A stretch of DNA of 54,276 bases from a bacterium (GTDB lineage: Bacteria; Patescibacteriota; Patescibacteriia; Patescibacteriales; VMTK01). A program made the position numbers and the translations under genes. Under the pieces are notes generated by a model. It was not told the DNA's origin. It saw only the letters and a list, made by a program, of their open reading frames with translations, and did no database searches. Positions 1 through 54,044 of the stretch are shown piece after piece (within the stretch, counting starts at the first letter, position 1; each line of letters opens with the position of its first letter). Where the stretch lies: assembly GCA_030693295.1 (NCBI GenBank), contig JAUYAT010000034.1, forward strand, positions 1-54,276, written 5' to 3'.

Positions 1-182
1 ACGTTATATGAAATACATGTTTTCCTTTTGGGCTACCGCCCAGCTCTTAAAAAAGAATTCAATTTTATTTTTTAATTTAATAAAAGAGGGGTAATAAGGT
101 GTTTTCTCCGCTCCGCTACGAAAACGATTTATTTATAAGGGGAAAACGAATACAATAACTTTGCCTAACACGAAAATAATAT

Positions 183-620
183 ATGCCAAAAATTAAGGAT
201 ATTCCAAAAATTGATCGCCCAAGAGAAAGATTTTTGCAAAAAGGGGCTGATGCACTTTCAAAGAGTGATCTTTTAGCGATTCTTTTGGGTAGCGGAATAA
301 AGGGAAAAAATGTTAGACAACTTTCAGAAAATATTATCAAAAAATTTGGTAAAAAGTTTTTAGATATAACTGTTGATGATCTGTTAGAAGTTTCAGGGAT
401 TGGACAAGCCAAGGCATTGCAAATTGTTTCTGCAATTTCCTTAGTAAAAAGATTCTACGCGGACGAAAAATCAAACGAGATTATTATTAAAAATTCTCAA
501 GATGTTTTATCGCTTACTTACGATTTAAGGGATAAGAAAAAAGAACATTTGGTTTGTTTATACCTTAATGCTAGAAATTCCCTACTCAAAAAGGAGGTCG
601 TTAGCGTTGGATTATTTTAA
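183..620 (+). pseudogene. radC: RadC-family protein, C-terminally truncated
   Basis: N-terminus DRPRERFLQKGADALSKSDLLAILLGSG and HhH GIGQAKA are RadC-like; the ORF stops at EVVSVGLF before the JAB (HNHPS) motif. Confidence 0.8.
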
Positions 621-632
621 TCAATACTCAAT

Positions 633-1484
633 ATGAAAAAAACAAATTCAATAGTCTTATTTAATCAAAAGCAAGTTCGTCGTTTTTATGATGAAAAAAA
701 AGAAACTTGGTATTTCTCTATTATTGATGTTATCGAAATCTTGACTGACGCTAGTATTCCAAGGAGATATTGGAGCGACTTGAAAAGTAAGCTGAAAAAC
801 GAAGGTAGTGAAGTGTACGAAAAAATCGTACAGTTGAAAATGACCGCCCCTGACGGAAAGAAAAGAGAAACAGACTCTTTTTCCACTGAAGACCTGCTTC
901 GTGTAATCCAATCAATTCCTTCTCCGAAAGCAGAACCTTTTAAATTATGGCTTGCCAAGGTTGGATATGAACGAATTGAAGAAACAGAAGATCCCGAACT
1001 TGCTTTTGATAGAGCGATGAAAACATATTTGCAAAAAGGTTATTCAAGAGAATGGATAAATCAACGATTAAAAAGTATTGAAGTGCGCAAAGAATTAACC
1101 GATGAATGGCAAGAGCGGGAAATGAAAGAAGGCCTGGAATATGCGATACTAACAGATGAGATTACGAGAGCGTGGGCAGATAGAAGCGTGAGAGATTATA
1201 AAAAGTTTAAGGGACTGAAAAAAGAAAATTTGAGAGATAATATGACTAATCTCGAATTAGTGTTGAATATGCTGGCGGAAGCCTCAACAACAGAAATATC
1301 TAAAAAGAAAAAACCGCAAGGACTGGAAAACAATAAACAGATTGCCCGAGCGGGAGGATTTGCTGCAAAAAAGGCGAGAATTGAAATAGAAAAACAAACA
1401 GGCGAAAGTGTGATAACTGCTAGAAATGCAAAAATTCTAAAGGGTAAACAAAATCCTTCTTTACCTGATAAAAGTAATAAATAG
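633..1484 (+). CDS. Bro-N domain / phage antirepressor-like DNA-binding protein
   Basis: WYFSIIDVIEILT, QSIPSPKAEPFKLWLA and LRDNMTNLELVLNMLAE motifs. Confidence 0.75.
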   Translation: MKKTNSIVLFNQKQVRRFYDEKKETWYFSIIDVIEILTDASIPRRYWSDLKSKLKNEGSEVYEKIVQLKMTAPDGKKRETDSFSTEDLLRVIQSIPSPKAEPFKLWLAKVGYERIEETEDPELAFDRAMKTYLQKGYSREWINQRLKSIEVRKELTDEWQEREMKEGLEYAILTDEITRAWADRSVRDYKKFKGLKKENLRDNMTNLELVLNMLAEASTTEISKKKKPQGLENNKQIARAGGFAAKKARIEIEKQTGESVITARNAKILKGKQNPSLPDKSNK

Positions 1485-1486
1485 TT

Positions 1487-2404
1487 ATGTCTATACAAAT
1501 TTTATCAAATCTAAATTACCCTATCGGTAATATCATCAATCAAGAATTACAGAACGCGCAATCCGCGAGAATTGCTATTGCCTTTCTAAAATACTCGGGC
1601 ATAAAAGTAATAGAGAAGTCGCTAAATCAATGTTTAGACAACAATGGAAGCGTTGAGATTATCGCTGGGCTTGATTTCAAAACAACTGACCCGCAATCAA
1701 TGCATTATTTAATTCAACTCCAAAAATCAAAGCCTAACTTAAAATTTTATTGTTACGGTGATAAAGATGTTAATAAAAACAACATCGTATTTCATCCCAA
1801 AATTTATTTATTTCAAGGCAAAAGAGAAACAACGGGTATCGTCGGCAGCACAAATCTAACAAGTGGAGGATTAATGACAAATTTTGAGGCAAACGTAATT
1901 TTTAAAGAAAGCAAACCTCTTTATTTTTCACAGCTTGAAGCAATTTATAATTCTGTAAAATTTACGGACTCTGTTTTTTCGCCTGACGAAGAATATTTGG
2001 CGGGGTATTCCGATGTTTATAAAGCATTTTTACACAACGAAGAAAAAGCAACGACAGATAAAAGCATTCAGAAAGTGGTTAATCAAATTAGAAAACGAGA
2101 GGAATTTTTGCCCGGTCCCGTTCCGTCAATTAAAGGTCTTATAATCCAGATTATTAAAGAACAACAAATCAAGGGAATAGAATTTGTACCGCTTCAAACA
2201 ATCTATGAGGAAGTTGAGAGATTAGTAGTTGAAAAAAATCTAGTATATAAAATGGACACATTTAGAAATTCTATCCGTGGCGAACTTAATACCCACGAGG
2301 ATAATAGCAATCATCCAAGCAATATACACCTGTTTGTTCGCTCAAACGACGAAAAGGGATATTATTCTTTGACTGATAATGGGAAAAATTATCAGGGCAG
2401 ATAA
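1487..2404 (+). CDS. PLD-family (HKD) nuclease with C-terminal winged-helix-like domain
   Basis: FHPKIYLF...IVGSTNLTSGGLMTNFE catalytic motif. Confidence 0.75.
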   Translation: MSIQILSNLNYPIGNIINQELQNAQSARIAIAFLKYSGIKVIEKSLNQCLDNNGSVEIIAGLDFKTTDPQSMHYLIQLQKSKPNLKFYCYGDKDVNKNNIVFHPKIYLFQGKRETTGIVGSTNLTSGGLMTNFEANVIFKESKPLYFSQLEAIYNSVKFTDSVFSPDEEYLAGYSDVYKAFLHNEEKATTDKSIQKVVNQIRKREEFLPGPVPSIKGLIIQIIKEQQIKGIEFVPLQTIYEEVERLVVEKNLVYKMDTFRNSIRGELNTHEDNSNHPSNIHLFVRSNDEKGYYSLTDNGKNYQGR

Positions 2405-2654
2405 GTTAATGATCTATAAAAATATGACAAAAAAATATTATTACGCACTGTTTGATAATCAGAACAATCGAACTACTTCAATCGGTATCAATAAAACATC
2501 AAAAGATGCCGTGAAAAATCGTCTAATAGGTTTTTTATTACTCAGTAATTTCTCAGAAGAAGGTGAAAATTCAATAAAAACGAATACTTTATCTCAATTA
2601 TTGAATTATTATGAGTTTGCGTTACTAAAATCGAGAGTTCCATTCGAGATTTGA
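2379..2654 (+). CDS. hypothetical protein (start uncertain, possibly 2409 or 2423)
   Basis: ORF only, co-oriented with neighbours. Confidence 0.4.
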   Translation: MGKIIRADKLMIYKNMTKKYYYALFDNQNNRTTSIGINKTSKDAVKNRLIGFLLLSNFSEEGENSIKTNTLSQLLNYYEFALLKSRVPFEI

Positions 2655-3858
2655 TACTTGGTTTAAAATTGCTAAAGAGCTTGGCTTTGTTTGGTATTGG
2701 CCAAATGAAGAAATTAAATTTTCCGAAAGCGGAAAAATGTTATTGGATAAAGAGAAACCAGAAAATGAGTTAATGGTTTTTGCTAATGCTTTTGCAAAAT
2801 ATCAACGCCAAAACCCGTTTCGTCGAGTTTTAAATAAAAATGTTCCGCTTATTTTACTCATACAAACTATAAAACTTTTGAATAATGATTCTGAATACAA
2901 AGGAGCTGGCATTTCCAGATTAGAAATACCTTTATTGCTATGTTGGCAAAACGATAATGCCAAAAGTTTATATCGAGAAATAAAGAAATTGCGCAAAAAA
3001 TACGGCTATTCGCCAAGCAACGAAGTGATTTTAGAGCTTTGCTATGGATTACTAAATGAAACAAAAAGAGACGATAACTCCATTTTAGGAGATTACCCCG
3101 ATGATTTTATTCGTAAAATGCGTTTAACTGGTCTACTTTCTCTACGCGGAGGTGGTCGTTTTATAGATATAAACACAAAAGAAACAGCAACCGTTGATTA
3201 TATTTTGAAAAAATATGTTTCTTACAAAAAATTTAAAACTGAAAAAGAATTTTTTGAATATATCGGCGAAGTTGATCGCGATTTAATCACAACACTTTCT
3301 GTATTTAAAGCCCCAGCAAAAACTACAAAGGCAGAACTGGAAAAATGGGTTAATCACTATGCTTGGGAATCAATTAAAAACGAACTTCTTAATTTAGCAC
3401 AAAAAAAATCTTCCAGTGATGATATTTTGAAAATTATTGAACAGCCATTGCGCTTAGAATTTCTAACTTCATTGGCTATCCTTAAAAAATTACCGAATGT
3501 TATCGTAAAACCGAATTTTGTATCCGACGACGAAGGACTGCCAACGAGTTTTGCTTCTGGCGGAAGCCCTGATATTGAATGCACGGAAAATAAAGACACT
3601 ATTTTAGTTGAAGTAACTTTACTGACAGGAACACAACAACATATCAGAGAATCGTTTTCTATACATCGACATCTTGAGGAGTATGCTAAAAAAGGCACTA
3701 AATCATATTCTGTGTTTATTTCGCCAAAATCTTTTATTGATACCGAACGCTACTTTGATTTTATCAAAAAAGATGGTCTGGAAGTTAGGATCTCCGATAT
3801 TGACAAATTTGTTAATAGCCTTGAGATGAAAACCACATTGAATGAAGTAACCATGTAA
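2644..3858 (+). pseudogene. AlwI-family type II restriction endonuclease, 5'-truncated
   Basis: DDEGLPTSFASGGSPDIEC...LVEVTL nuclease motif. The frame stays open upstream of ATG 2737 (SRFDTWFKIAKELGFV from 2644) but hits TAA at 2626-2628 with no start codon. Confidence 0.65.
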
Positions 3859-3864
3859 TTTTTT

Positions 3865-5388
3865 ATGAGCATATTTATAAAAAAATTAACGGTCAAAAAT
3901 TATAAATGCTTTGAAAATGAGCCGATAGATTTTAGTATTCCAAACGGAACTAAAGGAAGTGGGCTAAATATCCTGATTGGCGAAAATGGAAATGGAAAAA
4001 CTTCTATACTTGAAGCAATTAATTATCTCACACTAAGTAGTTTTTCTGCTGAAAATAAATTAAGTATAAACGACTTTTTTGATTTCAAAAAAGACATTTT
4101 GATTGAGGGTGAAACTGATGAGTTTGACTGTAGCTCGTCAATCGATTTTTATAAAGATTGGAGTTTTAAATCAAAAGGCATTTATTTTAAAGCAAAAAGT
4201 AGAGATACCAAGGAAAGAGGTAATTTATTATCAAGCCCTTTTCAAATTAACAATTATTTTATTTCACAGGAAAAGTATATAAAAAAAGATGGGACACAAG
4301 GAAAAGAAATTGATGGTAGGGACAAAATATTTTCAAAATCAAGAATTAATGGCGATGAAGAGTTGAATATTTTCTTTTTTGATAAAAACAGAACAAGACA
4401 AATTGCCACTGGAAATTACAAAACTACATTTGAAAAAATATGCGATGATCTTAATTGGAATTTTGTAAAAAATCTCAACGATGAAAATATTGAAAAAATT
4501 GTTCAAAATATAGCTGGAGAATATTTTAAAAACATTGAGGAAATTACAAAAAAGAATGTAGGAAAAAAAACGGCGAAAGACTTGAAAGATTTTTTTGGAA
4601 ACGATGAATTTGAAAAAATTAAAATTGAGCTTTTAAATCTTCTCCATCCTTTTTCTAATGCATTTTTTGCTATACGAAACGAAAATGCACTATCTCAAAT
4701 AAATGTGAGAGATTTAGGATCAGGCGTTGAAATAATATTAACTCTTTTAATGCTAAAAAATATTGCAGGAGCTTCCAAGGGAAGCATTATCTATTTAATT
4801 GACGAGCCAGAATTACATCTTCATCCTAAAGCACAAACCAAGTTACTTAATTTACTTCTTGAAGAAGCAAAAGATAAACAAATTATTATTTCTACCCATT
4901 CACCCTATTTATTCCGAGGTGCAATTTCTGAAAATGCCACACTTCTACTTTTTACCAGAGATGAAACTAAAAAAATCACAATTACAGACGCAAGAGATAA
5001 AGGCTGGGGATTATTTCCTTGGAGTCCATCATGGGGCGAAGTTAATTTTTTCGCTTATGATATGCCTACCATTGAATTTCATGATGAGTTATATGGATTT
5101 CTGCATGAAGCGTATATAGGAAAAGCAAGTGATCAAACAGATGCTGATAACAGAGGAAAACAAACGGTTTTTGAGAAAGATTTTCTTCAAACAAAATTAA
5201 CCACTACAAAAAAGTGGACTCCAGAATTTGGTGGAGTAGCTAAAAATGAAGAAGGTATTACCTTGTCTACATTTATTAGGAGTAAGACTCATCATCCTGA
5301 AAATAAAACTATGCAAAATGCGAATTTCACGGATATTGAGTTAAAAAATTCAATCGATGAATTGATTAAAATAATAAAGAATCCATAA
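3865..5388 (+). CDS. ABC/AAA-type ATPase with C-terminal putative HEPN domain (defence-like)
   Basis: Walker A GENGNGKT, signature LGSG, Walker B LIDEPELHLHP, H-loop STHS, C-terminal RSKTHH (Rx4H). Confidence 0.7.
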   Translation: MSIFIKKLTVKNYKCFENEPIDFSIPNGTKGSGLNILIGENGNGKTSILEAINYLTLSSFSAENKLSINDFFDFKKDILIEGETDEFDCSSSIDFYKDWSFKSKGIYFKAKSRDTKERGNLLSSPFQINNYFISQEKYIKKDGTQGKEIDGRDKIFSKSRINGDEELNIFFFDKNRTRQIATGNYKTTFEKICDDLNWNFVKNLNDENIEKIVQNIAGEYFKNIEEITKKNVGKKTAKDLKDFFGNDEFEKIKIELLNLLHPFSNAFFAIRNENALSQINVRDLGSGVEIILTLLMLKNIAGASKGSIIYLIDEPELHLHPKAQTKLLNLLLEEAKDKQIIISTHSPYLFRGAISENATLLLFTRDETKKITITDARDKGWGLFPWSPSWGEVNFFAYDMPTIEFHDELYGFLHEAYIGKASDQTDADNRGKQTVFEKDFLQTKLTTTKKWTPEFGGVAKNEEGITLSTFIRSKTHHPENKTMQNANFTDIELKNSIDELIKIIKNP

Positions 5389-5576
5389 TGAGAAGTTTTC
5401 GGTCGGGGCAATTCACCCCTTTTATTCCCCTCTTGCCCCTCCCTCAAGCAGAATAAGGAGTTTTGGATTTTGGGCATTCACCCCTGACCCCTCTGCCCAA
5501 AATCCAAAACGGAAAAAGAAATTTTAAAATTTTTTAAAACAATTCCGACTGCTGTCGGAAAAAAAAGAAATACATC

Positions 5577-5677
5577 AGCTAACACGGCATATCTGGTTAC
5601 GGCTTTTTACAAAAGCCTTCACCCATATTTGCCTCCGCTACGCTGCGGCAAACTTCGGATATTCCTAAACGTTAAAT
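5577..5677 (+). mobile_element. attC-like recombination site (empty form, 101 bp)
   Basis: AGCTAAC...GTTAAAT ends; arms acggcatatctg/cggatattcc; two internal sub-hairpins (ggctttt/aaaagcc and tttgcc/ggcaaa). Confidence 0.75.
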
Positions 5678-5714
5678 GAAATTTTGACTCTCTAATAAAT
5701 TAAATGGCATAAAT

Positions 5715-5906
5715 ATGGCAAGAACAGGCGGCCTGGGTTCAAAAGACGCACAGGCATTACACAAAACAGCGGACGCAACGCAACAGTTAGTTAGATTAAA
5801 TAAAGAAACTGGCAGACAGACGAAGTGGATGATTGCGTTAACAATTATTATCACGATTCTAACCTTAATAATGGCAATCCCCGTGGTAACGGATATTTTA
5901 AATTAA
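5715..5906 (+). CDS. small single-TM cassette protein
   Basis: 63-aa ORF filling the cassette 5671-5928, with a C-terminal hydrophobic helix. Confidence 0.6.
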   Translation: MARTGGLGSKDAQALHKTADATQQLVRLNKETGRQTKWMIALTIIITILTLIMAIPVVTDILN

Positions 5907-5921
5907 ACGAGTCAAAACTTC

Positions 5922-6545
5922 ACTTGACACCGAATATACGGTTGCATAAAAATTTAGATAATTTTATTTTCTAACTTATAACACCATGAACACAAAAACA
6001 ATAAGCTATTTAAGGGAAAAATTATGGTATAGACTTATAAAGGTTATTTATATTTTTTCATTTATATATTGTATCGGCGCAAGCATGGGATTTGCGATTA
6101 ATGAATTTGATAGTAACTACATAGTCATATCGCTGTTTACTCTCATACTATTCCCTATTTTAACTTATATCGGCTTTGAAATAATAAGAAGGTCATTTTA
6201 TTATATTGTTATAGGCACAATACAACCTATTGATGATAATTATTTAATGAAACTGAAAAAATATAAATTTTTAATCTCAGGTATTTTAATTATTTTACTA
6301 CTTATCATTCTGTTTCTTTGGTTTTTGGGATACCAAATAGAAAAAGACCAACAAAAAAATAAAGCAAAAGATGTATCTGAATTTCCAGAATCGCATATAT
6401 TATCAGATTCACCACAACTAAGAATAAAACCTATTAAATTAAACATACCACCTAAAAATAAAATTGTTTAAATTTTTTTAGTTCGCTCACCCGAATTCGC
6501 CCATGCTCCGCTTTGGCAAATTTCTGATACACGCACACATTAGAC
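5922..6545 (+). mobile_element. degenerate attC-like site containing a gene
   Basis: Left arm acttgacaccgaatatacggttgc; right part gctcacccgaatt...ttctgatacacgcacacattagac; both align with the 5577 and 53613 copies. Confidence 0.6.
5986..6471 (+). CDS. hypothetical membrane protein (3 TM)
   Basis: ORF with three hydrophobic segments. Confidence 0.65.
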   Translation: MNTKTISYLREKLWYRLIKVIYIFSFIYCIGASMGFAINEFDSNYIVISLFTLILFPILTYIGFEIIRRSFYYIVIGTIQPIDDNYLMKLKKYKFLISGILIILLLIILFLWFLGYQIEKDQQKNKAKDVSEFPESHILSDSPQLRIKPIKLNIPPKNKIV

Positions 6546-6607
6546 AAAATTGCAAAAACTTTTATTACTAATTAATTATATAAAAGTGCTGAATAATTCT
6601 TTCTCTT

Positions 6608-6793
6608 TGTCATTCCCAGCTTGACTGGGAATCCATGAGTTAACGGTAAGAATAAGAAAATAGATAAAAGTGTTAAAAAATATTATAGTACTTTTTAAAC
6701 TTTTTATTGATTATTCGCGTTTTTGCGGCTCACTCCTGGATTCCCGCTTTCGCTCGCCTCGCTGAAGCTTTGGCGAAGCGGGCGGGAATGACA
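6608..6793. repeat. ATTCCC-N8/9-GGGAAT paired palindromic (REP/dRS3-like) element
   Basis: Terminal IR tgtcattccc/gggaatgaca; two internal ATTCCC..GGGAAT hairpins, the right one interrupted by a 30-nt insert. Confidence 0.7.
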
Positions 6794-6819
6794 GAATTAA
6801 ATTATTCAACAATCTATAT

Positions 6820-7107
6820 ATGACAAACATACAAATGCAAAATTTACACAAAGAGATAGGCGAAGCGAGAGAAGAAAATATGAATGAGCGAAACAATAAC
6901 AAAAATATTAAAAAAACAAAACGTAGAAAAATTTCGAAATTTAATATACTAATAATAAGCATTGTGCTAATGCAAATTTTTGTTTACATTACTAGTCCGG
7001 TAAAACATCCTTTTGAAGATTATTTTGGAGTTATCTTGGTGGGTTTAATAATTTTAGCTATTGGAAATTTTGTAAAGTTTATTATTAGAAAAATAAAAAA
7101 TAAATAA
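6820..7107 (+). CDS. hypothetical membrane protein (2 TM)
   Basis: ORF with two hydrophobic segments; start may be 6879. Confidence 0.55.
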   Translation: MTNIQMQNLHKEIGEAREENMNERNNNKNIKKTKRRKISKFNILIISIVLMQIFVYITSPVKHPFEDYFGVILVGLIILAIGNFVKFIIRKIKNK

Positions 7108-7120
7108 TTTAATTCTTAAC

Positions 7121-7185
7121 GTTCGCTCACCCAAATTTTCGCTCCCTTTGGTCGCAAAAACTACGGATATCCCGATACGTTAGGC
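7121..7185 (+). mobile_element. right half of attC-like site
   Basis: gttcgctcacccaaatt...cggatatcccgatacGTTAGGC, near-identical to 54022-54044. Confidence 0.7.
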
Positions 7186-7274
7186 AAAAAGAATTCCCTC
7201 CCGAGGCGGGCAGGCACCCCTTTAATTCCCCTCTTCCCAAAGCGAAAAATAAAGTTATAAATTTTAAAATAATT

Positions 7275-8276
7275 ATGACAAAAAATAATTCTCAATTCAT
7301 CATCTATCAAGCCGAATCCGGCGAAACTAAAATAGATGTTCGTTTGGAAGATGAAACCGTATGGCTTACACAAAAACTGATGGCAAAACTTTTTGATACG
7401 AGTGTGCCAAATATAAATATACATCTCAAGAATTGCTACGAAGAAAGAGAAATAAACGAAAATTCAGTTATTAAGGATTTCTTAATAACTGCCGAGGATG
7501 GCAAAAATTATAAAACAAAATTCTACAATCTTGATGCCATTATTTCGGTTGGTTATCGCATAAAATCAAAAACAGCAACTCATTTTCGCAAATGGGCAAC
7601 AAGGAGACTAAAAGAATATATTGTAAAAGGTTTTGTTTTAGATGATGAGAGACTAAAAAATCCTGATTTACCGTATGATTATTTTGAGGAACTTACTCGT
7701 AGGATTCAAGATATTCGCACTTCGGAAAAAAGATTTTATCGTAAAATTACAGATATTTATGCTTTAAGCATTGATTACGATCCGACTGATCCGATAAGTA
7801 TTGAATTTTTTCAAACTGTGCAAAATAAAGTTCATTTTGCCATTACGAAAAAAACTGCCGCAGAAATAATTTCTAAACGAGTTGATTTCAAGAAACCAAA
7901 TATGGGACTTACAAACTGGCGAGGAGGAAAGGTAAGAAAAGATGACATAATTATTGCCAAAAACTATTTAAACGAAAAAGAACTTCTAGCTCTTAACAAT
8001 CTTGTTGAACAATATTTAATTTTTGCAGAAGGACAAGCTATGCAAAGAATTTCGATGAAGATGAAAGACTGGATAAAAAAACTGGAAGGATTTTTGACCC
8101 TTAACAATCGTAAAATTTTAATGGACAAAGGCAAAGTCTCTCATCAAGAAGCAAGACGGCTTGCTGAAAAAAATTATAAAAAATTTAACAAAAAAAGAGC
8201 AAACGAATATAATCAAATAGACGCTGATTTTGATAATGTGATAAAACTTATTGAAAATAAAAAAAAGAAAAAATAA
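7275..8276 (+). CDS. RhuM-family virulence/DNA-binding protein
   Basis: ETVWLTQKLMAKLF, YNLDAIISVGYRIKS, FRKWAT, IRTSEKRFYRKITDIY motifs. Confidence 0.85.
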   Translation: MTKNNSQFIIYQAESGETKIDVRLEDETVWLTQKLMAKLFDTSVPNINIHLKNCYEEREINENSVIKDFLITAEDGKNYKTKFYNLDAIISVGYRIKSKTATHFRKWATRRLKEYIVKGFVLDDERLKNPDLPYDYFEELTRRIQDIRTSEKRFYRKITDIYALSIDYDPTDPISIEFFQTVQNKVHFAITKKTAAEIISKRVDFKKPNMGLTNWRGGKVRKDDIIIAKNYLNEKELLALNNLVEQYLIFAEGQAMQRISMKMKDWIKKLEGFLTLNNRKILMDKGKVSHQEARRLAEKNYKKFNKKRANEYNQIDADFDNVIKLIENKKKKK

Positions 8277-8303
8277 GGAGTTTTGGGCTTCGGGCATTCA
8301 TAA

Positions 8304-37763: not shown

Positions 37764-38966
37764 TTACTTTTCTTTAACAATGATTGAATTTTCTACATCT
37801 TCTTTCTTAAAAGAACAAAATTGTTCTTTCTCTATCGCAAGAGCCGAAAAATAATGCTGGCAATAAACAGTTAAAACCTTGTTGGCAGCCACTATATTTT
37901 TCATTTTTCTGGCCGCTTCCTCTATGACCACCTGGTCATTTTTGTATTCATGTTTATCCGGATGATGCTCTGCGGCCAACTTATGGTAAGCGTCTCTTAT
38001 CTCTGGCAAGGCCGCGGATTCTCCGAGCCTCAAAGTTTTTCTGGCGTTATCAACTAAATCAAAATTTCCTACGCTGAGATTAATAACCGTGAAGCTGTAG
38101 GGCGCCATCGGCCCGATATATTTAAATTTCAGCTCATTTTTGTATTTTTCCGCCAGCTTATTTAATTGGAATTCTAACAGCGATTCTTCTCCTTTGCCTA
38201 TTAAAAATGAATAGTTCATAAGCATTTCTTTGTTTACCGCGCGGCGAGTTTGCTCTGCTTCGGGGTTTGCTCCCCCCTTATTGGCATAGAGAAGCTTGCT
38301 CGCCTCGCTGAAGCTCTGGCGAAGCGGGCTGGCGTTAAAATCTGGGAAAGAGGATGCGAGATACTTTAAAATATCTGCTGTATATTCTTTTCGGTATGCC
38401 TCAATAGCTTCAAATATGCGCTTGCCTAATTTTATTTTAGATGCCAACCCCAAAATTCCGCCTTTTGACTCTGCTTCCTTTTTCAATTTTTGAATCGCGA
38501 CATTTTCCCGGACTATCTTCTCAAGCATATTCTTTTCGTTCCAAAATATTTGAACAACAAACTCTGCTTTTCCGGCAATTCTTTCCAGAGCAATCTTAAA
38601 TTGTAGGTATGCCTTGGTTAAAATATTACTAATTTCCTCAATATCTTCCGCAATCATTCCAAACCTCATGGGAATAACATCGTGCTGTTTCATCAGGTTA
38701 ACATTCACCCGTTCATGTATTGCAACTAAATGGGTAAGCTCCTTTTTATCAAGCTTATCAAAATTAATAAAATAAGTGTTGCTGACCGCAACTGCTATCT
38801 CTCTGTAAGGGATGAAAATTATCTCGCGATTATTAATGCCAAACATCGCTTCTGATAAACGAAAATTATCAGAGGCCTGCCCCGTACCGTGCTTGCTCTG
38901 GTGCGGGGATGGCGTCTCTTTTGGATTCTTGATTATTGAATATATGTATTTTCTTTCTTCACTCAT
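37764..38966 (-). CDS. GvpL/GvpF family protein fused to a J domain
   Basis: YIYSII, IPMRFG and GPMAPYSF followed by IRDAYHKLAAEHHPD. Confidence 0.85.
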   Translation of the reverse strand: MSEERKYIYSIIKNPKETPSPHQSKHGTGQASDNFRLSEAMFGINNREIIFIPYREIAVAVSNTYFINFDKLDKKELTHLVAIHERVNVNLMKQHDVIPMRFGMIAEDIEEISNILTKAYLQFKIALERIAGKAEFVVQIFWNEKNMLEKIVRENVAIQKLKKEAESKGGILGLASKIKLGKRIFEAIEAYRKEYTADILKYLASSFPDFNASPLRQSFSEASKLLYANKGGANPEAEQTRRAVNKEMLMNYSFLIGKGEESLLEFQLNKLAEKYKNELKFKYIGPMAPYSFTVINLSVGNFDLVDNARKTLRLGESAALPEIRDAYHKLAAEHHPDKHEYKNDQVVIEEAARKMKNIVAANKVLTVYCQHYFSALAIEKEQFCSFKKEDVENSIIVKEK

Positions 38967-41230: not shown

Positions 41231-41916
41231 TTTGTTTTGGTTAATTTCAATTCCAATATCCCATTTTTGAAATTCATCTCCCGAGATTCAAAATCAACTT
41301 TGGCCGGCAGCAAAATCTCTTTGGCGTATTTTCGGTCATTGCTCCCCGCTTCGCCCGCGAAGCGAGGCGAGTCCGCCTCAAATAAAAGAATATCCCCGCC
41401 TGCCATCGGCTTTGCCTCAGGCGAATGGCGGGCAGACTTTTTCAAATCGACTTTAATGCTTTTTTCGTCAATACCCGGGAGTTCGGCGATTATCAAAATA
41501 TGATCTTTCTCGTCAAACACATCAACGATTGGTTCTCTCGTCTCTGATACCTTCGGACCTTCTTTAGTTTTTTTAATATTCCCGAATGGTTCAACTTTTG
41601 TTCTTTGTCCCAGACCAGTCCGAACAGTAAAACCATATACTCCATGAATATCTTGGCGTCCCCCAAATCCTTTTCCGCCAAAGGCGGATCCGCCTCGGGC
41701 GGAAATCCGGCCGCTTCTTTTCAGTTCACCGCCGACTTCCTCGGCCCGTTCCGCTAAATCAATAAATTTCCCCAATCCTTTAAGCAAACCGCCGACAAAA
41801 GGTATATCGTCAAGCGATATTTCATCCTTGCCCTCCGACTTGTCCTCCGTAGCTTTAGCGTAGGAGGAAGCCTTGGCGAAGGAGGGTTTTCCCTTTTTTT
41901 GTTCTTCTTTTTTCAT
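41227..41916 (-). CDS. Hsp20/alpha-crystallin (GvpH-like) protein
   Basis: REPIVDVFDE, IAELPGI and FKNGILEL motifs. Confidence 0.85.
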   Translation of the reverse strand: MKKEEQKKGKPSFAKASSYAKATEDKSEGKDEISLDDIPFVGGLLKGLGKFIDLAERAEEVGGELKRSGRISARGGSAFGGKGFGGRQDIHGVYGFTVRTGLGQRTKVEPFGNIKKTKEGPKVSETREPIVDVFDEKDHILIIAELPGIDEKSIKVDLKKSARHSPEAKPMAGGDILLFEADSPRFAGEAGSNDRKYAKEILLPAKVDFESREMNFKNGILELKLTKTK

Positions 41917-42368
41917 AAAATTTTGAAAGTTCCCAAAAAATCCTTGAAGAAGAATTTTCTTCCTTTCTTTATCTCTGCTTTTGCTTTTCTTATTTTCGGC
42001 GCGGCTGGCTTTATGCCCCTTGTCTTGCTCCTTGATTTCTTAATGGGCTGGCTCTTTTTTCTTCTTGTCTTTGGAACCGAAGATTCGACTATCAATGGAT
42101 GTCTCTTTTCTTCAACAAACCCCTTGCCCTGGCACAGCAAACAATAGAGATTGGCGCCTGCTTTCTTGCCTCTGCCCCCGCATTCCTTACATATATTATA
42201 CGGCTGGTTTACAGTAACACGGCCACTGCCTTTGCAGACAATGCAAGACAGACGCTCCGCGCCCGGCTGTACTCCCTTGCCTTGGCAAAAAGCGCATGGG
42301 AATTTTTTAGTTTTTTCCGCCAAGGGCGGATCCGCCTCTGGCGGAGAATATTTTTTTTTCATTTTCAT
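41913..42368 (-). CDS. DnaJ-type zinc-finger protein
   Basis: Four CxxCxGxG repeats and a basic tail. Confidence 0.75.
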   Translation of the reverse strand: MKMKKKYSPPEADPPLAEKTKKFPCAFCQGKGVQPGAERLSCIVCKGSGRVTVNQPYNICKECGGRGKKAGANLYCLLCQGKGFVEEKRHPLIVESSVPKTRRKKSQPIKKSRSKTRGIKPAAPKIRKAKAEIKKGRKFFFKDFLGTFKIL

Positions 42369-42670
42369 TAATACTCTAAAATAAATTTCCCATCTCGGTC
42401 TTTCCCAAGTCCAAACTTTGGCATTTTCTTAGAAACCACAATCTTACTGGGTTTATTGACCTTTCTTTTTGCCGCCTCAAGTTTGCCTTTTCCGCGAAAC
42501 ACGGCCAGTTTTGAATGCAGAAAGTCAATATAATCATGCCGGCCGAGATTATTGCAAATAAGCCTGGCATAATCGGTGCTGATCCTCGCCTCCCTCGCAA
42601 TAGTGTCAATGGATGCCTCTCCGCCCCAATCCCAAAGAATTTCTAATACTTTAAGTTCTGTTCCTGACAT
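42368..42670 (-). CDS. winged-helix protein
   Basis: ELKVLEILWDWGG...IAREARISTDYA. Confidence 0.65.
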   Translation of the reverse strand: MSGTELKVLEILWDWGGEASIDTIAREARISTDYARLICNNLGRHDYIDFLHSKLAVFRGKGKLEAAKRKVNKPSKIVVSKKMPKFGLGKDRDGKFILEY

Positions 42671-42671
42671 G

Positions 42672-42983
42672 TTAATAGTCTAAAACGGTATGGCTGCCCG
42701 ATTTTGAATAGGTTTCTCTAATTTTACTCAATCCCTTGCTCCCAGCAGTGGCAATTTTAAGAAGTTTAGCCATGCCCGTATTAATTACGGTTAAATTTTT
42801 ATCGATCTGCTTCCCTTTTTTTTGCAATCTTATTTTTTCTTTCTCAAGCCGGTCTCTCTTATTTTGACGCATATACAGGTCTAAAAAAGCCGACTTTGAT
42901 GAGTGAGGAATAGACCTTAGCCCGGTTGAACCCGCGCTTTTTAAGTCGTGGATCCCCGAGAGATTAGCGTTTATTTTTTCCAT
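42672..42983 (-). CDS. GvpV-like coiled-coil protein
   Basis: AFLDLYM...RDRLEKE; directly after gvpN. Confidence 0.5.
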   Translation of the reverse strand: MEKINANLSGIHDLKSAGSTGLRSIPHSSKSAFLDLYMRQNKRDRLEKEKIRLQKKGKQIDKNLTVINTGMAKLLKIATAGSKGLSKIRETYSKSGSHTVLDY

Positions 42984-43001
42984 AGATTTGTGTGTAATTA
43001 A

Positions 43002-43931
43002 TTAACAAAGTTTGGTGATTAATTCTCCTACTATTTTTCTCACCTTATTATGGTGATCTTGCGAGCCCAATCGCGTTGTTTCCGATGCCAATATATCCTG
43101 GGCTAACTGGCGGAACAAGCGGCTGGAAGCCAACACTGCGCCTCCGTTAGTCTTGAGGGACTTTGCCAGCATTATTGAGCCGCGAACAGTTGGCGCGAAT
43201 TCATATTCCCCGGAATCGCGAAGCGCTCGGACGATATTGACAATTTTCTCGGTATCTTTTCGATCTAGACCGGATTTGGCTTGAGTGATGGCAATTTCCG
43301 TATTCTTGTCAAAGTGCCTTAAATCCATAGTTACCATTCTATCGCGCAACGCGTCTTGAGCTTTATTTGTCCCCGCGTATTCTTCAGGATTTGAGGTGAA
43401 AATAGCCACAAACTGCGGATGAGCCTTAAGATAATAAGATTCCCGCCCTTGTCTGGCCATCGGCAAATCCATCACCCCTTCTTGCAAGATGGAAAGCAAG
43501 GTGTTGTTTGCTTCCGGCCGGGATCGAGTGAACTCGTCATAAATAAGGGTAAAGCCGTTTTTTACCGCGATAGTCAGACGATTATCCATCCACTGTTTTG
43601 AGAAGTTCTCTTCTTTCTTAAGGACGCTCTGAATAAAATTGTCTCTTAAATATTTGTAACGGTAGCCATGCTCTCCGCCAATAAGATCAGAGGTAGAATA
43701 TTCCTCATCGCCATGAATCAACACTGCCGGACGGCCAATCTTTTGCGCCAAGTGCAAAGCCAAGGTGGTTTTTCCTGTTCCTGAAGCGCCTCTTAAATGC
43801 ACGGGAAAACCCGCCTTAATATAATTCAACGCCCGCTTGCTAATATCCTTGATATACGAAGTCTCCACAAAGCCAGCCACTGGCCGTGGCTCAATAATTG
43901 CTTGTTCTTCATCTGATGATAAATAAGACAT
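43002..43931 (-). CDS. gvpN: gas vesicle AAA ATPase GvpN
   Basis: GFPVHLRGASGTGKTT, YDEFTRSRPEANN, FTSNPEEYAG and QDALRDR motifs. Confidence 0.95.
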   Translation of the reverse strand: MSYLSSDEEQAIIEPRPVAGFVETSYIKDISKRALNYIKAGFPVHLRGASGTGKTTLALHLAQKIGRPAVLIHGDEEYSTSDLIGGEHGYRYKYLRDNFIQSVLKKEENFSKQWMDNRLTIAVKNGFTLIYDEFTRSRPEANNTLLSILQEGVMDLPMARQGRESYYLKAHPQFVAIFTSNPEEYAGTNKAQDALRDRMVTMDLRHFDKNTEIAITQAKSGLDRKDTEKIVNIVRALRDSGEYEFAPTVRGSIMLAKSLKTNGGAVLASSRLFRQLAQDILASETTRLGSQDHHNKVRKIVGELITKLC

Positions 43932-44052
43932 ATTGGTAATTCAATTAAAATTAATGTTCAAGTCGGAATCTTGCCAGAATCTTGCGCGATTCCGAATATT
44001 TCGACCCGCCTGCCATCGCTATGCTCAGGCATTGCGGGCAGGCCTTTAGAAT

Positions 44053-44715
44053 TTATTTAGCTTTATGCTTTTTTGCTTTTTTTGCTGCTTTTTTTGGTTC
44101 CTCGGCTTCTTCTCCCGCCGCAATCGCTCTCTCCTGCTTCCTTAATACCCCCCAGTTTGCGCGCGCTTCTTTTCGCTCTTCTGCGTAATCGCCTAACAAA
44201 TCCGCTACATGCTTTTGGATAACAGGTATTTGCGACTCTATATCTTTCATCATAGTCTTGAAATCAACCATACGGGTTTGTTCGCTTTTAGCCAGCAAAT
44301 CCTTCAAGTCCTTTGCTATTTCTTTCATTTCCTTGTCAAAGCGACTAAGCAACTCTTTCACATCAGCCGCTCTTTCTTTGCTTTCTCCGCTAAATCTTAC
44401 AATAAGTTTCCTGGAATCTTCTAATACATCAGCTACTCTTGCTTGAATGTCCTTTATCATTTTACTGAAATCTGCCATTCTGTCCTTTTCGCTCTTATCC
44501 AAAAAATTCTTCAGTTCCTGCGCCACTTCCTTTAATTCTTTGTCAAATCGCGAAAGAAGCTCGCGCGTGTCCGCTTTATTATCTATTAATTCCTTATCAA
44601 GTCGCGAAAGAAGCTCGCGCGTGTCCGCTTTATTATCTCTAACGAATTGCAAGCGATCTTTTGTGGAAGTTTTAATATCGCTTACTAAACTTTTCATTTC
44701 TTGTGCGTATGACAT
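44053..44715 (-). CDS. GvpC-like helical repeat protein
   Basis: All-helical amphipathic repeats (ELLSRFDKE x3); lies between gvpA and gvpN. Confidence 0.6.
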   Translation of the reverse strand: MSYAQEMKSLVSDIKTSTKDRLQFVRDNKADTRELLSRLDKELIDNKADTRELLSRFDKELKEVAQELKNFLDKSEKDRMADFSKMIKDIQARVADVLEDSRKLIVRFSGESKERAADVKELLSRFDKEMKEIAKDLKDLLAKSEQTRMVDFKTMMKDIESQIPVIQKHVADLLGDYAEERKEARANWGVLRKQERAIAAGEEAEEPKKAAKKAKKHKAK

Positions 44716-44818
44716 ATTTTTTTGTTAAATTGATTAATGTTGATTAGTTAATGCTAATTGTTTTGTCGACCTTTAGTTATTTCTTTAGTTATTTATAAAA
44801 ATTTATTTGTTTGAATTG

Positions 44819-45091
44819 TTAAACCTTCAAAAACCCCGCCTCTCCTAAATACTTCTCATACTCCGGAAAGAAATCCAACGCCACTTTCTTTAATTCTAAA
44901 TGTTCAAGATAGTATTTTCTGATCTTCGTAAGTTGTTCCGCTCGCTTTCTCGCCGCAGTCCTCCGCCAGCTGGCGGACTGCGCGACGGAGCGGAAATATT
45001 GTTCTTTTTCGCGTTTCTCTTTTTTTAATTTCCTTTCTTCATCCCATATTTCTCTCATTGTTCTTATTGTTTTTGTTTTGATAATAGGCAT
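44819..45091 (-). CDS. hypothetical basic protein
   Basis: Co-oriented ORF in the operon. Confidence 0.45.
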   Translation of the reverse strand: MPIIKTKTIRTMREIWDEERKLKKEKREKEQYFRSVAQSASWRRTAARKRAEQLTKIRKYYLEHLELKKVALDFFPEYEKYLGEAGFLKV

Positions 45092-45216
45092 TTGAATGAT
45101 TTTATTTAGGCTCTGCTGATTTTCACCGATTATTCACCTCTTGAGAGGGGCTAAGGATGGATTATTGAAAAATTAACAGATTGAATGCGTTAATTCGTTA
45201 ATAAATAATTCCTTTT

Positions 45217-45564
45217 CTATATCGCTCCCAATCCATAACAACTCGCGCAAGGAAGATCGCTTCCCGGTTCTCTTCCGTCGCCTTTGCACTTAGCGCATCT
45301 TTTCTCCCCCCTGATCTTCGTTACCATGCCTTTCCCGCCGCATACGGCGCAAGGCATTCGGTGGTTAAAGAAAATGCCGCTTCCTTTGCAATAGGGACAA
45401 ATTTCCACCGGCTCCACCACTTGAACCGCGCCCCTGCCATTGCAAACTTGGCAGTTGGAAAGTTTTGACGGAACCTCAAACGGATCCTTGCCCTTTCCTT
45501 TGCAAAAAGCGCAAGTGATTGTTCGGTAGTTGCAAGCAGATTTTTTGGTTGTCTTTTTTGCCAT
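45217..45564 (-). CDS. DnaJ-type zinc-finger protein
   Basis: Six CxxCxGxG repeats. Confidence 0.78.
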   Translation of the reverse strand: MAKKTTKKSACNYRTITCAFCKGKGKDPFEVPSKLSNCQVCNGRGAVQVVEPVEICPYCKGSGIFFNHRMPCAVCGGKGMVTKIRGEKRCAKCKGDGREPGSDLPCASCYGLGAI

Positions 45565-45574
45565 AAATTTTAAT

Positions 45575-46147
45575 TTATAAATCCTTTTTTTTATCAAGCA
45601 GCGGCGATATCTTCTTCCACTCTTCCGCCGCCGCTTCCCTTTCCTTTTTAAATGCTTCCAGCATCTTATAGACTTCGCTCTGCATAGTTGCCAGCTCGGC
45701 CCTAACTTGCTCTCCGGTATTTGCTTCTCTTGATGCCTGATCCTGCCGTATGCGGACTAAAGTTTTTTTGAAATCTGCCAAGCGAAGTTCCTCGCCTCTT
45801 TTAAGCAGCCCTTTTAAATGTTCTACCACTCGGGTCTCTTCCTCTCTGAAATCAGCCAGCATTTTTTTCACATTTTCTTCTCTTTTATGCTGGGTCAATA
45901 AAATATCCCGCATCATCGCGCTAAAATCTTTTTTGCGAAGCGACTCGGATTTTGCTAAAACCTCCCGAAGATTATCACTCATCTCCTCCCTATTTTTCCT
46001 AAATCCGTTCAGCGCCTTATGAGTGTCTTCCACAATCTCTCCGACTACTCTCACCCGCGCGTCATACGAGACAATAATGTCCTTTGCTAAATCTCTTAGG
46101 TCTCGCTTCTCGGTCTCGCCTGATTCTTTTTTCATTAATTCTTTCAT
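45575..46147 (-). CDS. helical protein, second GvpC-like candidate
   Basis: LAKSESLRKKDFSAMMRDI resembles LAKSEQTRMVDFKTMMKDI of 44053-44715. Confidence 0.6.
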   Translation of the reverse strand: MKELMKKESGETEKRDLRDLAKDIIVSYDARVRVVGEIVEDTHKALNGFRKNREEMSDNLREVLAKSESLRKKDFSAMMRDILLTQHKREENVKKMLADFREEETRVVEHLKGLLKRGEELRLADFKKTLVRIRQDQASREANTGEQVRAELATMQSEVYKMLEAFKKEREAAAEEWKKISPLLDKKKDL

Positions 46148-46358
46148 AAATATCTCTCAAAAGTTCAAAATGCAAAAATTAAAATGTAAAATGGCAAATT
46201 AAAATTATAAAATTATTCTGATTAGATTCATTTTTATATTTTAATTTTTGCATTTATATTGTCTAAGGCACGCTCTCGATTTTACCCATATGGGTTGTGG
46301 GAGGACTTTATAGTGCTTCTACCAATCTAAAGGGCGCCCTATCCAATATGCTCTAATA

Positions 46359-46565
46359 TTAAGCGGCGCTGGCAGTCAAACCGACTGCTTCAGCGTACTT
46401 CAACCAGGTCTCAACTGAAGCAATCACTACTCGGGCTTCAATCGCCAGAAGCTCAATTCCCACTAACGAAATTCTTACCCAAGCGTCAATCACCACGCCC
46501 TTGTCAAGAATGCGGTCAATCACTTCCACCAAGCTGGAGCTGGACATTGATTTTTCTACGGCCAT
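46359..46565 (-). CDS. gvpA: major gas vesicle shell protein GvpA
   Basis: [55 protein letters not shown]. Confidence 0.97.
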
Positions 46566-47036: not shown

Positions 47037-47171
<135 letters not shown>

Positions 47172-52164: not shown

Positions 52165-52210
52165 ATTTTTTCTCCCTCTCCTTCGCAAGGAGAGGGCTGG
52201 GGTGAGGTTT

Positions 52211-53032
52211 TCAAACCAACGGACTTTTAATATTTCTAATGCTCGGATTCGTAACATGCGTATAAATCTGCGTTGTCCTGATATTTTGATGCCCTAAAAG
52301 TTCCTGCACATAGCGAACATCAACGCCATTTTCCAGCAAATGGGTCGCGAAGCTGTGGCGCAAAGAATGAAAAGTCGCTTCTCTCTTAATATCCGCTTTT
52401 TTCAGGGCGATTGCAAATATCTTCTGCGCCGAGCGCTCAGTTAATTTTCCGCCAAGCTGGCTGACAAACAAATACTCATTTCCTATTTTCCCCGCAATCA
52501 TATTCATTATATCATTTTTAAATTTTTCCGGAAAAATCGTAATCCTGTCTTTATTCCCTTTCGCGCCCTTTAAATGCGCCGTAAGTTCATTCAAATTAAT
52601 GTCTTTAATTTTTAAATTGACGGCTTCGCTAACTCTTAATCCGCACCCGTAAGCCAGCGCAATTACTAATTTATGTTTTTGATTCGTGATATTTCCGATA
52701 ATTTTTTCTATTTCCAAACGTGAAAGAACTACCGGAAGTTTTGATGGCGTCTTCGCGAATTTAATATCAATATTCTCATTAATCTTGCACACTTCGCGAT
52801 AAAAATATTTTATGGCTTGAAGATAAAGGTTAATGGTCTGCGACGACAACCCCCTGCCCTGTTTTTCAAGCAAGTATTTTTTTATAATCATAACATCCGG
52901 CTCTCTTTTAACATTTTTAATGTGTTTAAAATAGTCGGATAAACAAAAAAGGTAGCTCTTAACAGTTTTTCGGCTATAGTTCCGAAGTTTTAGCTCATCT
53001 TTAATTTTATCCATTAATTCTTGCAAATTCAT
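52211..53032 (-). CDS. tyrosine recombinase, integron-integrase-like short form
   Basis: LRNYSRKTVKSY SAM-like N-domain, KLPVVLS, YGCGLRVSE, KGNKDR, HSLRHSFATHLLE, LGH...TTQIY; divergent from cassettes. Confidence 0.9.
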   Translation of the reverse strand: MNLQELMDKIKDELKLRNYSRKTVKSYLFCLSDYFKHIKNVKREPDVMIIKKYLLEKQGRGLSSQTINLYLQAIKYFYREVCKINENIDIKFAKTPSKLPVVLSRLEIEKIIGNITNQKHKLVIALAYGCGLRVSEAVNLKIKDINLNELTAHLKGAKGNKDRITIFPEKFKNDIMNMIAGKIGNEYLFVSQLGGKLTERSAQKIFAIALKKADIKREATFHSLRHSFATHLLENGVDVRYVQELLGHQNIRTTQIYTHVTNPSIRNIKSPLV

Positions 53033-53090: not shown

Positions 53091-53135
53091 AATATTCGTA
53101 TTTCATACAATTATTAACACATTAAACGAATATTT

Positions 53136-53158
53136 GTTCGCATATAAACGAGTTAGGC
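53136..53158 (+). mobile_element. attI-like site
   Basis: ...catataaacgaGTTAGGC at the first cassette boundary; GTTAGGC is complementary to GCCTAAC at 53613. Confidence 0.65.
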
Positions 53159-53177
53159 GAAATTACGCCCTTGCATT

Positions 53178-53618
53178 ATGCCATTATCAAATTCCTACAA
53201 TCCAAAAAAAGGCAGAGACTTTGAAGAAAAGGTCAGCCAAGCTTTAGAAAAAAAATATAAAACAAGCTTCAAAAAGCGATCTATAAATATCGGCACGCCA
53301 CCTAAAGCACATAATTTTGATTTAGTTTCTGAAAATGGAACTATTATTGTAGAATGTAAAAATTATTCGTGGACAGAAACCGGAAATATCCCAAGTGCTA
53401 AAACCGCCTTTTTAAATGAAGCTGTTTTATATCTTTCTCACGCGTCAGCCGACTCTAAAAAAATAATTGTCTTGAGAAAAGATAATCATCCTAAGAGAAA
53501 AGAAAGCTTAGCTGAATACTATGTCAGAACATATTTTCATTTACTAAATGCAGTTGTGATAATGGAACTTGATATTAACAACATGATAATCAAGGAAGTC
53601 GGGCGTAACATCGCCTAA
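53178..53618 (+). CDS. cassette gene: PD-(D/E)xK nuclease-like protein
   Basis: GRDFEE...NFDLVS...IVECK; its stop codon lies in GCCTAAC. Confidence 0.65.
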   Translation: MPLSNSYNPKKGRDFEEKVSQALEKKYKTSFKKRSINIGTPPKAHNFDLVSENGTIIVECKNYSWTETGNIPSAKTAFLNEAVLYLSHASADSKKIIVLRKDNHPKRKESLAEYYVRTYFHLLNAVVIMELDINNMIIKEVGRNIA

Positions 53619-54044
53619 CACGGGATATCTGGTTCGCAAGTAAAAAAATTATGAAAACAATTAAAGTAAAATCTATAATTGATGGTGACACATTCGTAGG
53701 CGAGGATAAAATACATTATCGTCTTGTCAGTGTCGATGCGCCAGAAACTAATCAACCTGGTTTTAATAAATGTAGAACTGCTCTTGAAAAATTAATCTTA
53801 AACAAGGAACTTGAGATATTAAGAGAACAATCCAATACGTCATTTGGCAGACCCGTGGTAGAAGTCAGAGTCATTGGAGAGAGTGATAGTGTTAATAAAA
53901 AAATGAATATTTTTCTGAGCAAATAATTATTTTCATAATTTTTTTACTTGCTCACGCAAATTCGGTTTTAAATTTCCGCTGGCGCATCCGCGCAATTATA
54001 GCAAAAATTTCAAACCGAACTTCAGATATCCCGATACGTTGTCT
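53613..54044 (+). mobile_element. attC-like site (432 bp) containing a gene
   Basis: GCCTAACacgggatatctg...cagatatcccgatacGTTGTCT outer stem with two sub-hairpins. Confidence 0.75.
53651..53926 (+). CDS. thermonuclease (SNase-like) protein
   Basis: IDGDTF, RLVSVDAPE and FGR motifs; 91 aa, no signal peptide. Confidence 0.75.
   Translation: MKTIKVKSIIDGDTFVGEDKIHYRLVSVDAPETNQPGFNKCRTALEKLILNKELEILREQSNTSFGRPVVEVRVIGESDSVNKKMNIFLSK

Follow-up and report, generated by a model that had tools for sequence, protein, structure and literature searches.

A short IntI-related integrase of Patescibacteria without the I2 insert, linked to an attI-like site and branched attC-like cassette sites

Integrons are defined and detected by the extra domain of their integrase, IntI. 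In true integrons, the I2 helix reads extrahelical bases and prevents a lethal second exchange, as described in passages of PMC4792948. The locus described here raises the question of whether a recombinase that lacks this element can head a cassette array of its own. It lies near one end of a patescibacterial contig of 54,276 nt (JAUYAT010000034.1 in assembly GCA_030693295.1; C37 in our numbering), the whole of which was analyzed and is referred to below as the window. A sequence-only reading had proposed that the 273-aa protein encoded at 52211..53032 on the minus strand belongs to a distinct integron-like family with branched sites, which standard IntI/attC models may miss.

The protein is a short IntI-related tyrosine recombinase without the I2 insert or the β4-5 hairpin. 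As had been claimed, its 273 aa contain the complete R-K-H-R-H-Y catalytic set of a tyrosine recombinase, and R133, K158, H222, R225, H248 and Y257 were invariant in an alignment of 78 homologues. The interval between KDR and YLF, previously put at about 22 aa, was counted at 23 residues. The reported absence of the IntI-specific insertion was borne out as two gaps, of 30 and 12 aa, relative to IntI1, for which the comparison sequence was taken from an annotated plasmid. The interval from R163 to H222 spans 58 aa in 26/27 core members of the family, compared to 99–101 aa in 14 IntIs and 62–93 aa in 24 XerC/D proteins. IntI1 residues K219, Y220, W229, P242, H250 and H251, which belong to the I2 helix and the β4-5 hairpin, were gapped or substituted in all 27 core members.

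The IntI-specific profile TIGR02249 gave 200.8 bits against a cut-off of 265, and the match was broken into two stretches. A strong IntI C-terminal match that included I2, which would have spoken against the proposal, was not what we found: the insert is absent and the IntI profile was not reached, and the suspicion that standard models may miss such a system holds for this integrase profile. The generic Xer models also remained below their cut-offs (182 vs 335 bits for TIGR02224, XerC; 176 vs 330 bits for TIGR02225, XerD), and the top NCBIfam match was the archaeal XerA model NF040815, just above cut-off at 230 vs 220 bits. The N-terminal PF13495 domain and an SPL-like C-terminal end are common to the integrase and IntIs. 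An AlphaFold2 model of the integrase had a mean pLDDT of 88.6, and the closest solved structure was VchIntIA (PDB 2a3v), followed by XerA; this order of fold matches may in part stem from how the domains are arranged.

Intact relatives with a length of about 273 aa numbered at least 120, at 69–90% identity. By source name, the homologue records came from Parcubacteria, Moranbacteria and other Patescibacteria, and a few were titled Gammaproteobacteria. The distribution is patchy, with an integrase match (E of 1e-40 or better) in 28/61 related genomes, and the genes behind the integrase differ among genomes (glycosyltransferase, Mur ligase and others), none being shared. The assembly itself (90% complete, 2.3% contamination) encodes only two tyrosine recombinases, the 273-aa integrase and one of XerC/D type. 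No IntI above cut-off was detected in 201 genomes of the phylum, compared to 8/41 in a control phylum. (Full-length TIGR02249 matches of 326–343 aa in the phylum looked IntI-like at first; the five that were extracted have XerC/D-like ends, and two of these full-length matches that were put in the tree fell in the XerC/D clade.)

In a phylogeny of 80 rows, which included 14 IntIs and from which archaeal XerA was absent, the short CPR integrases formed one group (support 95/93) and the IntIs another (100/99) that excluded the 273-aa integrase. Both groups, together with four other short proteins, were separated from XerC/D (100/100). Judged by these sequences, the short CPR clade lies beside, not inside, the sampled IntIs. 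The topology is compatible with the insert having been gained along the IntI stem, in a small sample in which the branching order of the three groups is unsettled.

The attI-like site had been described as divergent to the integrase gene, and it does lie on the plus strand, 104 nt upstream of the minus-strand gene. This simple site (53133..53163, core 53137–53159) consists of a left arm, a 7-nt spacer and a right arm in an 11-7-11 layout. Its GTT occupies positions 53152–53154 on the opposite strand to the integrase, and we infer a crossover of the GTTRRRY type between G53152 and T53153. A second copy of the left box is found on the same strand at 53095..53102, 42 nt before the core. Such a repeat was present within 60 nt upstream at 27/40 integrase-linked attI sites, with the same spacing in 25, and is likely to be an accessory binding site.

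The site is conserved with the integrase. The 8-nt attI core occurred 50–230 nt upstream of the gene in 23/53 close homologues (39 with one mismatch; four further loci were too short), compared to 0/61 XerC/D genes (4 with one mismatch). When a profile built from 11 loci was applied at a threshold of 12 bits, the site was detected upstream of 27/35 held-out close homologues (26/34 when the locus at 52211–53032 was left out), with no hits downstream of the 35 held-out homologues or upstream of the 61 XerC/D genes. The more distant subgroup carries a variant core, and the profile scored in 2/15 only. Two Bacteroidota short IntI-related recombinases, L124 (plasmid NZ_CP092416) and L022, have the 58-aa spacing, and one of them adjoins erm(F). 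The attI motif of the Patescibacteria family was not found at either of these non-CPR relatives; a missing insert alone thus does not predict an array.

The attC-like site in the window (53613..54044, plus strand) is 432 nt long, with R'' at 53613–53619 and R' at 54038–54044. It folds, as the claim of branched sites had implied, into an outer stem and two inner hairpins. The outer stem has 11 bp (53621–53631 / 54023–54033) and is followed by a bulge (54034–54037) before R', while the second inner hairpin occupies 53958..54022. The bottom-strand fold had z = −5.0, and none of 100 shuffles was as stable; fold stability is essentially the same for both strands (−60.1 and −60.5 kcal/mol). Among 32 attC-like sites, 27 gave a more stable fold for the bottom strand, with a 3-nt bulge immediately internal to the R' box, and 24 had a two-hairpin interior, compared to 248/960 shuffles. 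With two hairpins in its interior, the attC-like site is a three-way junction. Its spacer strands are 6 and 9 nt by our own count, and that of attI is 7 bp; the right arm resembles the attI core, with a spacer 2 nt longer than that of attI.

To follow the outer stem across genomes, 44 candidate attC-like sites were reduced to 33 with full arms and at most one mismatch. The stems had been chosen for pairing, so the percentage paired and a left/right shuffle are not independent evidence. Within these 33 sites, five of the 11 outer-stem columns swap among two to four common pair types with pairing kept, and positions that were not part of the selection are conserved (A after AAC in 33/33; AC before GTT in 30/33). 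The spacer beside the crossover differs among sites and covaries with the arm 60–450 nt distant. In an unbiased count by loop size, the regions upstream of 57 integrases had 14–25 AAC...GTT pairs per 100 kb that close a 10-bp stem with an offset of +3, whereas the density did not exceed 2.2 per 100 kb in downstream DNA or in the surroundings of XerC/D genes. Perfect inner repeats, such as those in the first cassette at C8, account only in part for an a = b excess in the AAC...GTT count (13–15 per 100 kb).

With arm profiles derived from 31 sites in other genomes, 10 left and 9 right arms were detected in this genome, compared to 4 left and 0 right in 1.92 Mb of XerC/D flanks; of the hits in this genome, 17 reached at least 19 bits and lay within array-like regions. 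(A first arm profile, from six seed sites with an 11-bit threshold, was too loose: it gave 145 left hits, mostly noise.) No attC arm was found at 7/14 held-out integrase loci with at least 1.4 kb upstream. Homologues apart from such arrays, which the sequence-only reading had named as contrary evidence, are not the picture that emerged; upstream of the homologues lie attC-like sites and the attI motif, both of them absent from the XerC/D controls. A comparison with Rfam returned only three sub-threshold matches at the 52211–53032 locus and no family in four arrays.

Only the first cassette is complete in the window; the second is cut off by the contig end. Cassette 1 (53153..54038, plus strand) is 886 bp long, and a 22-nt inverted repeat (53149–53170 / 53601–53622) forms its ends. 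Its gene (53178..53618, plus strand) encodes 146 aa of no named family and has its stop codon within R''; a NERD match below cut-off provides a weak lead to PD-(D/E)XK/NERD nucleases. Cassette 2 begins at 54039 and runs on the plus strand to the contig end (54039..54276), with an open frame from 54114. Cassettes are co-oriented and bounded by RYYYAAC...GTTRRRY sites. A search for a Pc-type promoter to drive them gave 3 promoter-like matches, vs 2.0 in shuffles, none of which exceeded chance. The R'' sequence of cassette 1 (53613–53619) is the exact complement of the start of the same cassette. For 14 cassettes under 1.6 kb, taken from 26 rows, R'' agreed with its own cassette start at 46/56 variable bases and with the adjoining R' at 27/56, as would be expected if cassettes exist as circles.

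The arms of the attC-like site also hold a gene. This gene (53651..53926, plus strand; 91 aa) sits in the loop of one inner hairpin, the arms of which (53636–53663 / 53924–53951) constitute a 28-bp repeat that is 96% complementary. Its product appears staphylococcal-nuclease-like (SNase-like) by its features and predicted structure. An unrelated 106-aa gene is found in the equivalent attC arm position in L131, from a genome of another family, and a 161-aa gene at 5986–6471 of the window, where the outer arms are mismatched. A similar long attC arm in L200 has short frames only. Between the left and right attC arms in L016, about 5.5–6.0 kb upstream of the integrase, are genes of 72 and 73 aa that we take to resemble a HicB/HicA-type pair.

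The same cassettes occupy different sites, behind different neighbors. Cassette 2 is second at the 52211–53032 locus and first at the integrase-less attI of C16 (239 nt, one mismatch). In run X1, which is probably the source sample, one contig has cassette 1 behind an attC right arm instead of attI, and the piece from attI to cassette 1 had a depth of 9.4, compared to 23.3 on either side, a weak hint of mixed arrangements. Run X2 contains a related strain (about 98% identity over the integrase) in which the integrase-linked attI is occupied by the C8 first cassette, and in run X4 (depth 2), the C8 first cassette follows the attC at 53613..54044. All observed cassette switches fall at GTT. The run contigs over the C8 array show many branches at attC arms, and no different first cassette at the C8 attI was found among the contigs compared with that array. 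Evidence from the runs consists of assembled contigs, some at a depth of 2–5, in which strain mixture and ongoing shuffling look alike. (A record at a depth of 9 that joins a C8-type attC arm to cassette 2 has three differences, may be a related cassette, and was not counted.)

The C8 first cassette is made up of nested palindromes over about 200 nt and has no evident gene of its own (L110:3470–3680; G000:C8 39468–39675). It is likely multi-copy, since its depth in run X2 was about 30 vs about 5 for the integrase, and similar elements recur in L117 and L016. In the same array, a DDE transposase element interrupts an attC-like site just before its end, at the GTT position (L110:5103–6278; G000:C8 41102–42277).

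A second array of the same family is found at the other end of the window (1..8300, plus strand), with attC-like arms at 5577, 5671, 5922, 6539 and 7179 and its head outside the contig. It carries restriction- and defence-like genes; restriction-modification, AAA-ATPase and PADLOC candidate defence genes are among the cargo of this array and of C48. Attachment arms at 5577–5677, 5922–6545 and 7179 are mismatched or missing, and the outer stem of the 5577 site is not formed in the lowest-energy fold. At 5577–5677 and 5922–6545, the left and right stems disagree, as if the sites were hybrids of two. Two further features of the window lie outside the arrays. We presume that GvpA-, GvpN- and GvpL/F-like genes with an AAA ATPase at 38963–46565 form an apparent gas vesicle operon, a cluster that is unexpected in so small a genome. 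A CT dinucleotide run of about 19 units (47087–47124) lies upstream of an HTH regulator gene.

The genome has four high-scoring attI sites at unrelated loci. Three of them have no integrase: the one on C8 adjoins a thioredoxin-reductase-like gene, that on C16 a Mur ligase gene and that on C31 dnaJ. A strict attI pattern gave 15 further matches in relatives, 10 of which had no integrase upstream (1.5 kb examined for eight; 209 and 733 nt for two). Seven of the nine integrase-less sites that were scanned have a downstream attC arm in array orientation, and none has one that is reversed. The motif was also present, with no integrase match, in two genomes of one genus and in one other. It is likely that one integrase serves several attI platforms per genome in trans. 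The gene order in G045 is attI, integrase, Mur ligase gene, and in C16 attI lies directly before the Mur ligase gene; from this comparison, integrase-less attI sites may arise by integrase loss. Short palindromic repeats were seen near each attI platform (52170–52210 of the window; C16, C31, C8), and the one at 52170–52210 was multi-copy in all four runs.

The absence of the insert, the conserved attI and the branched, covarying sites support the proposal of a distinct integron-like family with branched sites. We consider it probable that 52211–53032 encodes the integrase of an integron-like gene-cassette system that is found across Patescibacteria and that captures and reorders cassettes via folded attC and duplex attI sites. 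The linkage between gene and sites suggests that the 273-aa integrase is the enzyme that recombines them. In the mechanism that we propose, the integrase would bind the Y-shaped attC-like site's folded bottom strand and cleave only at the R box. One strand pair would then be exchanged with duplex attI, and the resulting junction would be resolved by replication. The second exchange would be blocked by the DNA itself, through the unequal spacer strands of 6 and 9 nt and the lack of homology to attI past the crossover base, with the three-way junction under the L box perhaps helping.

XerC, which has no I2, carries out one strand exchange between the folded CTX attP(+), with central regions of 12 and 5–7 nt, and dif, and it stops after that exchange because homology is missing on the other side (passages of PMC4246890). 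With spacer strands of 6/9 nt facing a 7-bp spacer in attI, the logic of attP(+) likely applies here as well. Two points count against the proposed mechanism. CTX uses two different recombinases, of which only one is active, whereas here a single protein would have to avoid the second cut and keep half of its subunits quiet. In addition, deletion of I2 abolishes IntI1 function (Messier and Roy 2001, as cited in a passage of PMC7790495).

We considered the possibility that the integrase acts on duplex DNA only, in which case L'-spacer-R' would be an attI-like simple site that undergoes two exchanges, and the hairpins would be RNA terminators or stabilizers. The resemblance of the right arm to the attI core is in keeping with this, as are the absence from the integrase of all listed IntI insert residues contacting extrahelical bases and the ancestral attI × attI double-exchange activity that IntI1 retains (passages of PMC4792948 and PMC7790495). 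Nevertheless, we regard it as unlikely. Double exchange by a tyrosine recombinase requires matching spacers, but the right-arm spacer exceeds the attI spacer by 2 nt, and the crossover-adjacent spacer varies between sites and covaries with an arm 60–450 nt off. Moreover, R'' tracks its own cassette start, and no Rfam family was found in the four arrays. Even less likely is an attI that is dif-like, with a host XerC/D-type recombinase inserting the cassettes and the short recombinase acting as a dimer resolvase beside its site. Although the 11-7-11 layout of attI is near the 11-6-11 layout of dif (passages of PMC4246890), the best NCBIfam match is the archaeal XerA model (230 vs 220), and integrase-less attI sites exist, with three genomes having the motif and no integrase match, the gene is patchy (28/61 relatives), its neighbors vary and it falls outside the XerC/D clade (100/100). 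The genome has four attI copies at unrelated loci, unlike the single dif, and the XerC/D flanks contain neither attI (0/61) nor, in 1.92 Mb, a right attC arm.

A second, unrecognized protein might supply the hairpin-reading function of I2 in trans. This would accommodate the requirement of IntI1 for I2 and the block of the second exchange in a one-protein system; however, no neighboring gene behind the integrase is shared among genomes, and we rate the idea lower again. The least probable of these alternatives, and in our estimation a very doubtful one, is a decayed IntI that has lost its insert, beside arrays that are either fossils or run by a canonical IntI elsewhere. It draws on VchIntIA being the closest solved structure and on the PF13495 domain and SPL-like end, which are as in IntIs, but has to contend with at least 120 relatives that are intact, at about 273 aa, and with the 58-aa R163–H222 interval in 26/27 core members. 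The clade also lies outside the 14 sampled IntIs, there was no IntI above cut-off in 201 genomes, and the site geometry is unlike that of classical attC folded in the same way.

The integron-like cassette system that we favor has much in common with integrons (IntI1, VchIntIA), especially sedentary chromosomal ones. In both, the integrase is divergent from attI with a G/TT crossover; cassettes of one or a few genes end in RYYYAAC...GTTRRRY, with R'' complementing its own cassette start; and the sites are defined by structure, with a bottom-strand bias and defence-rich cargo. Integrons are also the nearest fold match and clade. In contrast to their integrases, the Patescibacteria integrase has no I2 helix or β4-5 hairpin and 42 fewer residues. 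Classical attC folds into a stem that does not branch and carries its single extrahelical bases on the L''/R'' arm, whereas the sites here have an unbroken 11-bp stem and a 3-nt bulge on the cleaved R' arm. The spacer strands of the aadA2 attC are 7/8 nt by our own count, compared to 6/9 here. Unlike in integrons, the attC interior is a three-way junction able to hold a whole gene, and there are several attI platforms per genome without an integrase. The system appears to work like an integron, yet the defining test sets it apart from IntI integrons.

Recombination of CTXφ attP(+) with dif by XerC/D likewise involves a recombinase without I2, a folded single strand and unequal central regions, as proposed here, and proceeds by one strand exchange with replicative resolution (passages of PMC4246890), as would be the case here. 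CTX hijacks two host recombinases at chromosomal dif, irreversibly, while in the present system one dedicated recombinase adjoins its own site, and the cassettes retain a complete folded site and are moved again. Archaeal XerA and single-recombinase Xer systems are similar in passing NF040815, in length and in the dif-like layout of the target. Unlike archaeal XerA, which would be expected throughout its lineage with a single dif per chromosome, the integrase is patchy (28/61), coexists with an XerC/D-type gene, has four target copies in the genome and heads cassette arrays.

An "integron-like" subgroup of simple tyrosine recombinases in which the insertion is not fully conserved was described by Smyshlyaev et al. 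(2021, PMC8138268); the main-text passages compared mention no attI, attC, arrays, Patescibacteria or Parcubacteria. In the full-text literature, mostly outside subscription journals, we found no paper on cassette arrays run by an insertion-less integrase or on Patescibacteria integrons. The label "short integron integrases" may stem from environmental surveys, and no paper with this label was found in the full-text literature searched.

More tentatively, the system may represent a living pre-I2 integron, a complete, self-encoded capture system that branched before IntI gained its domain, with Y-shaped sites in the role that I2 took over later, one integrase at work on a network of attI platforms across the chromosome, and an attC that offers a second cargo slot within one of its arms. 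The origin of the IntI extra domain relative to attC has been posed as a chicken-and-egg problem (a passage of PMC4792948), and no ancestor sequence is available (a passage of PMC7790495). If true, a pre-I2 integron would be a functional intermediate that resolves the paradox of whether I2 or attC came first. With an insertion-less integrase that occurs naturally together with its own attI and folded sites, the question of origin becomes directly testable, and a 273-aa recombinase with sequence-flexible sites is a possible tool. The system would also provide Patescibacteria with a means of gene capture, which in this genome has defence-type cargo and which an IntI-profile search leaves unscored.
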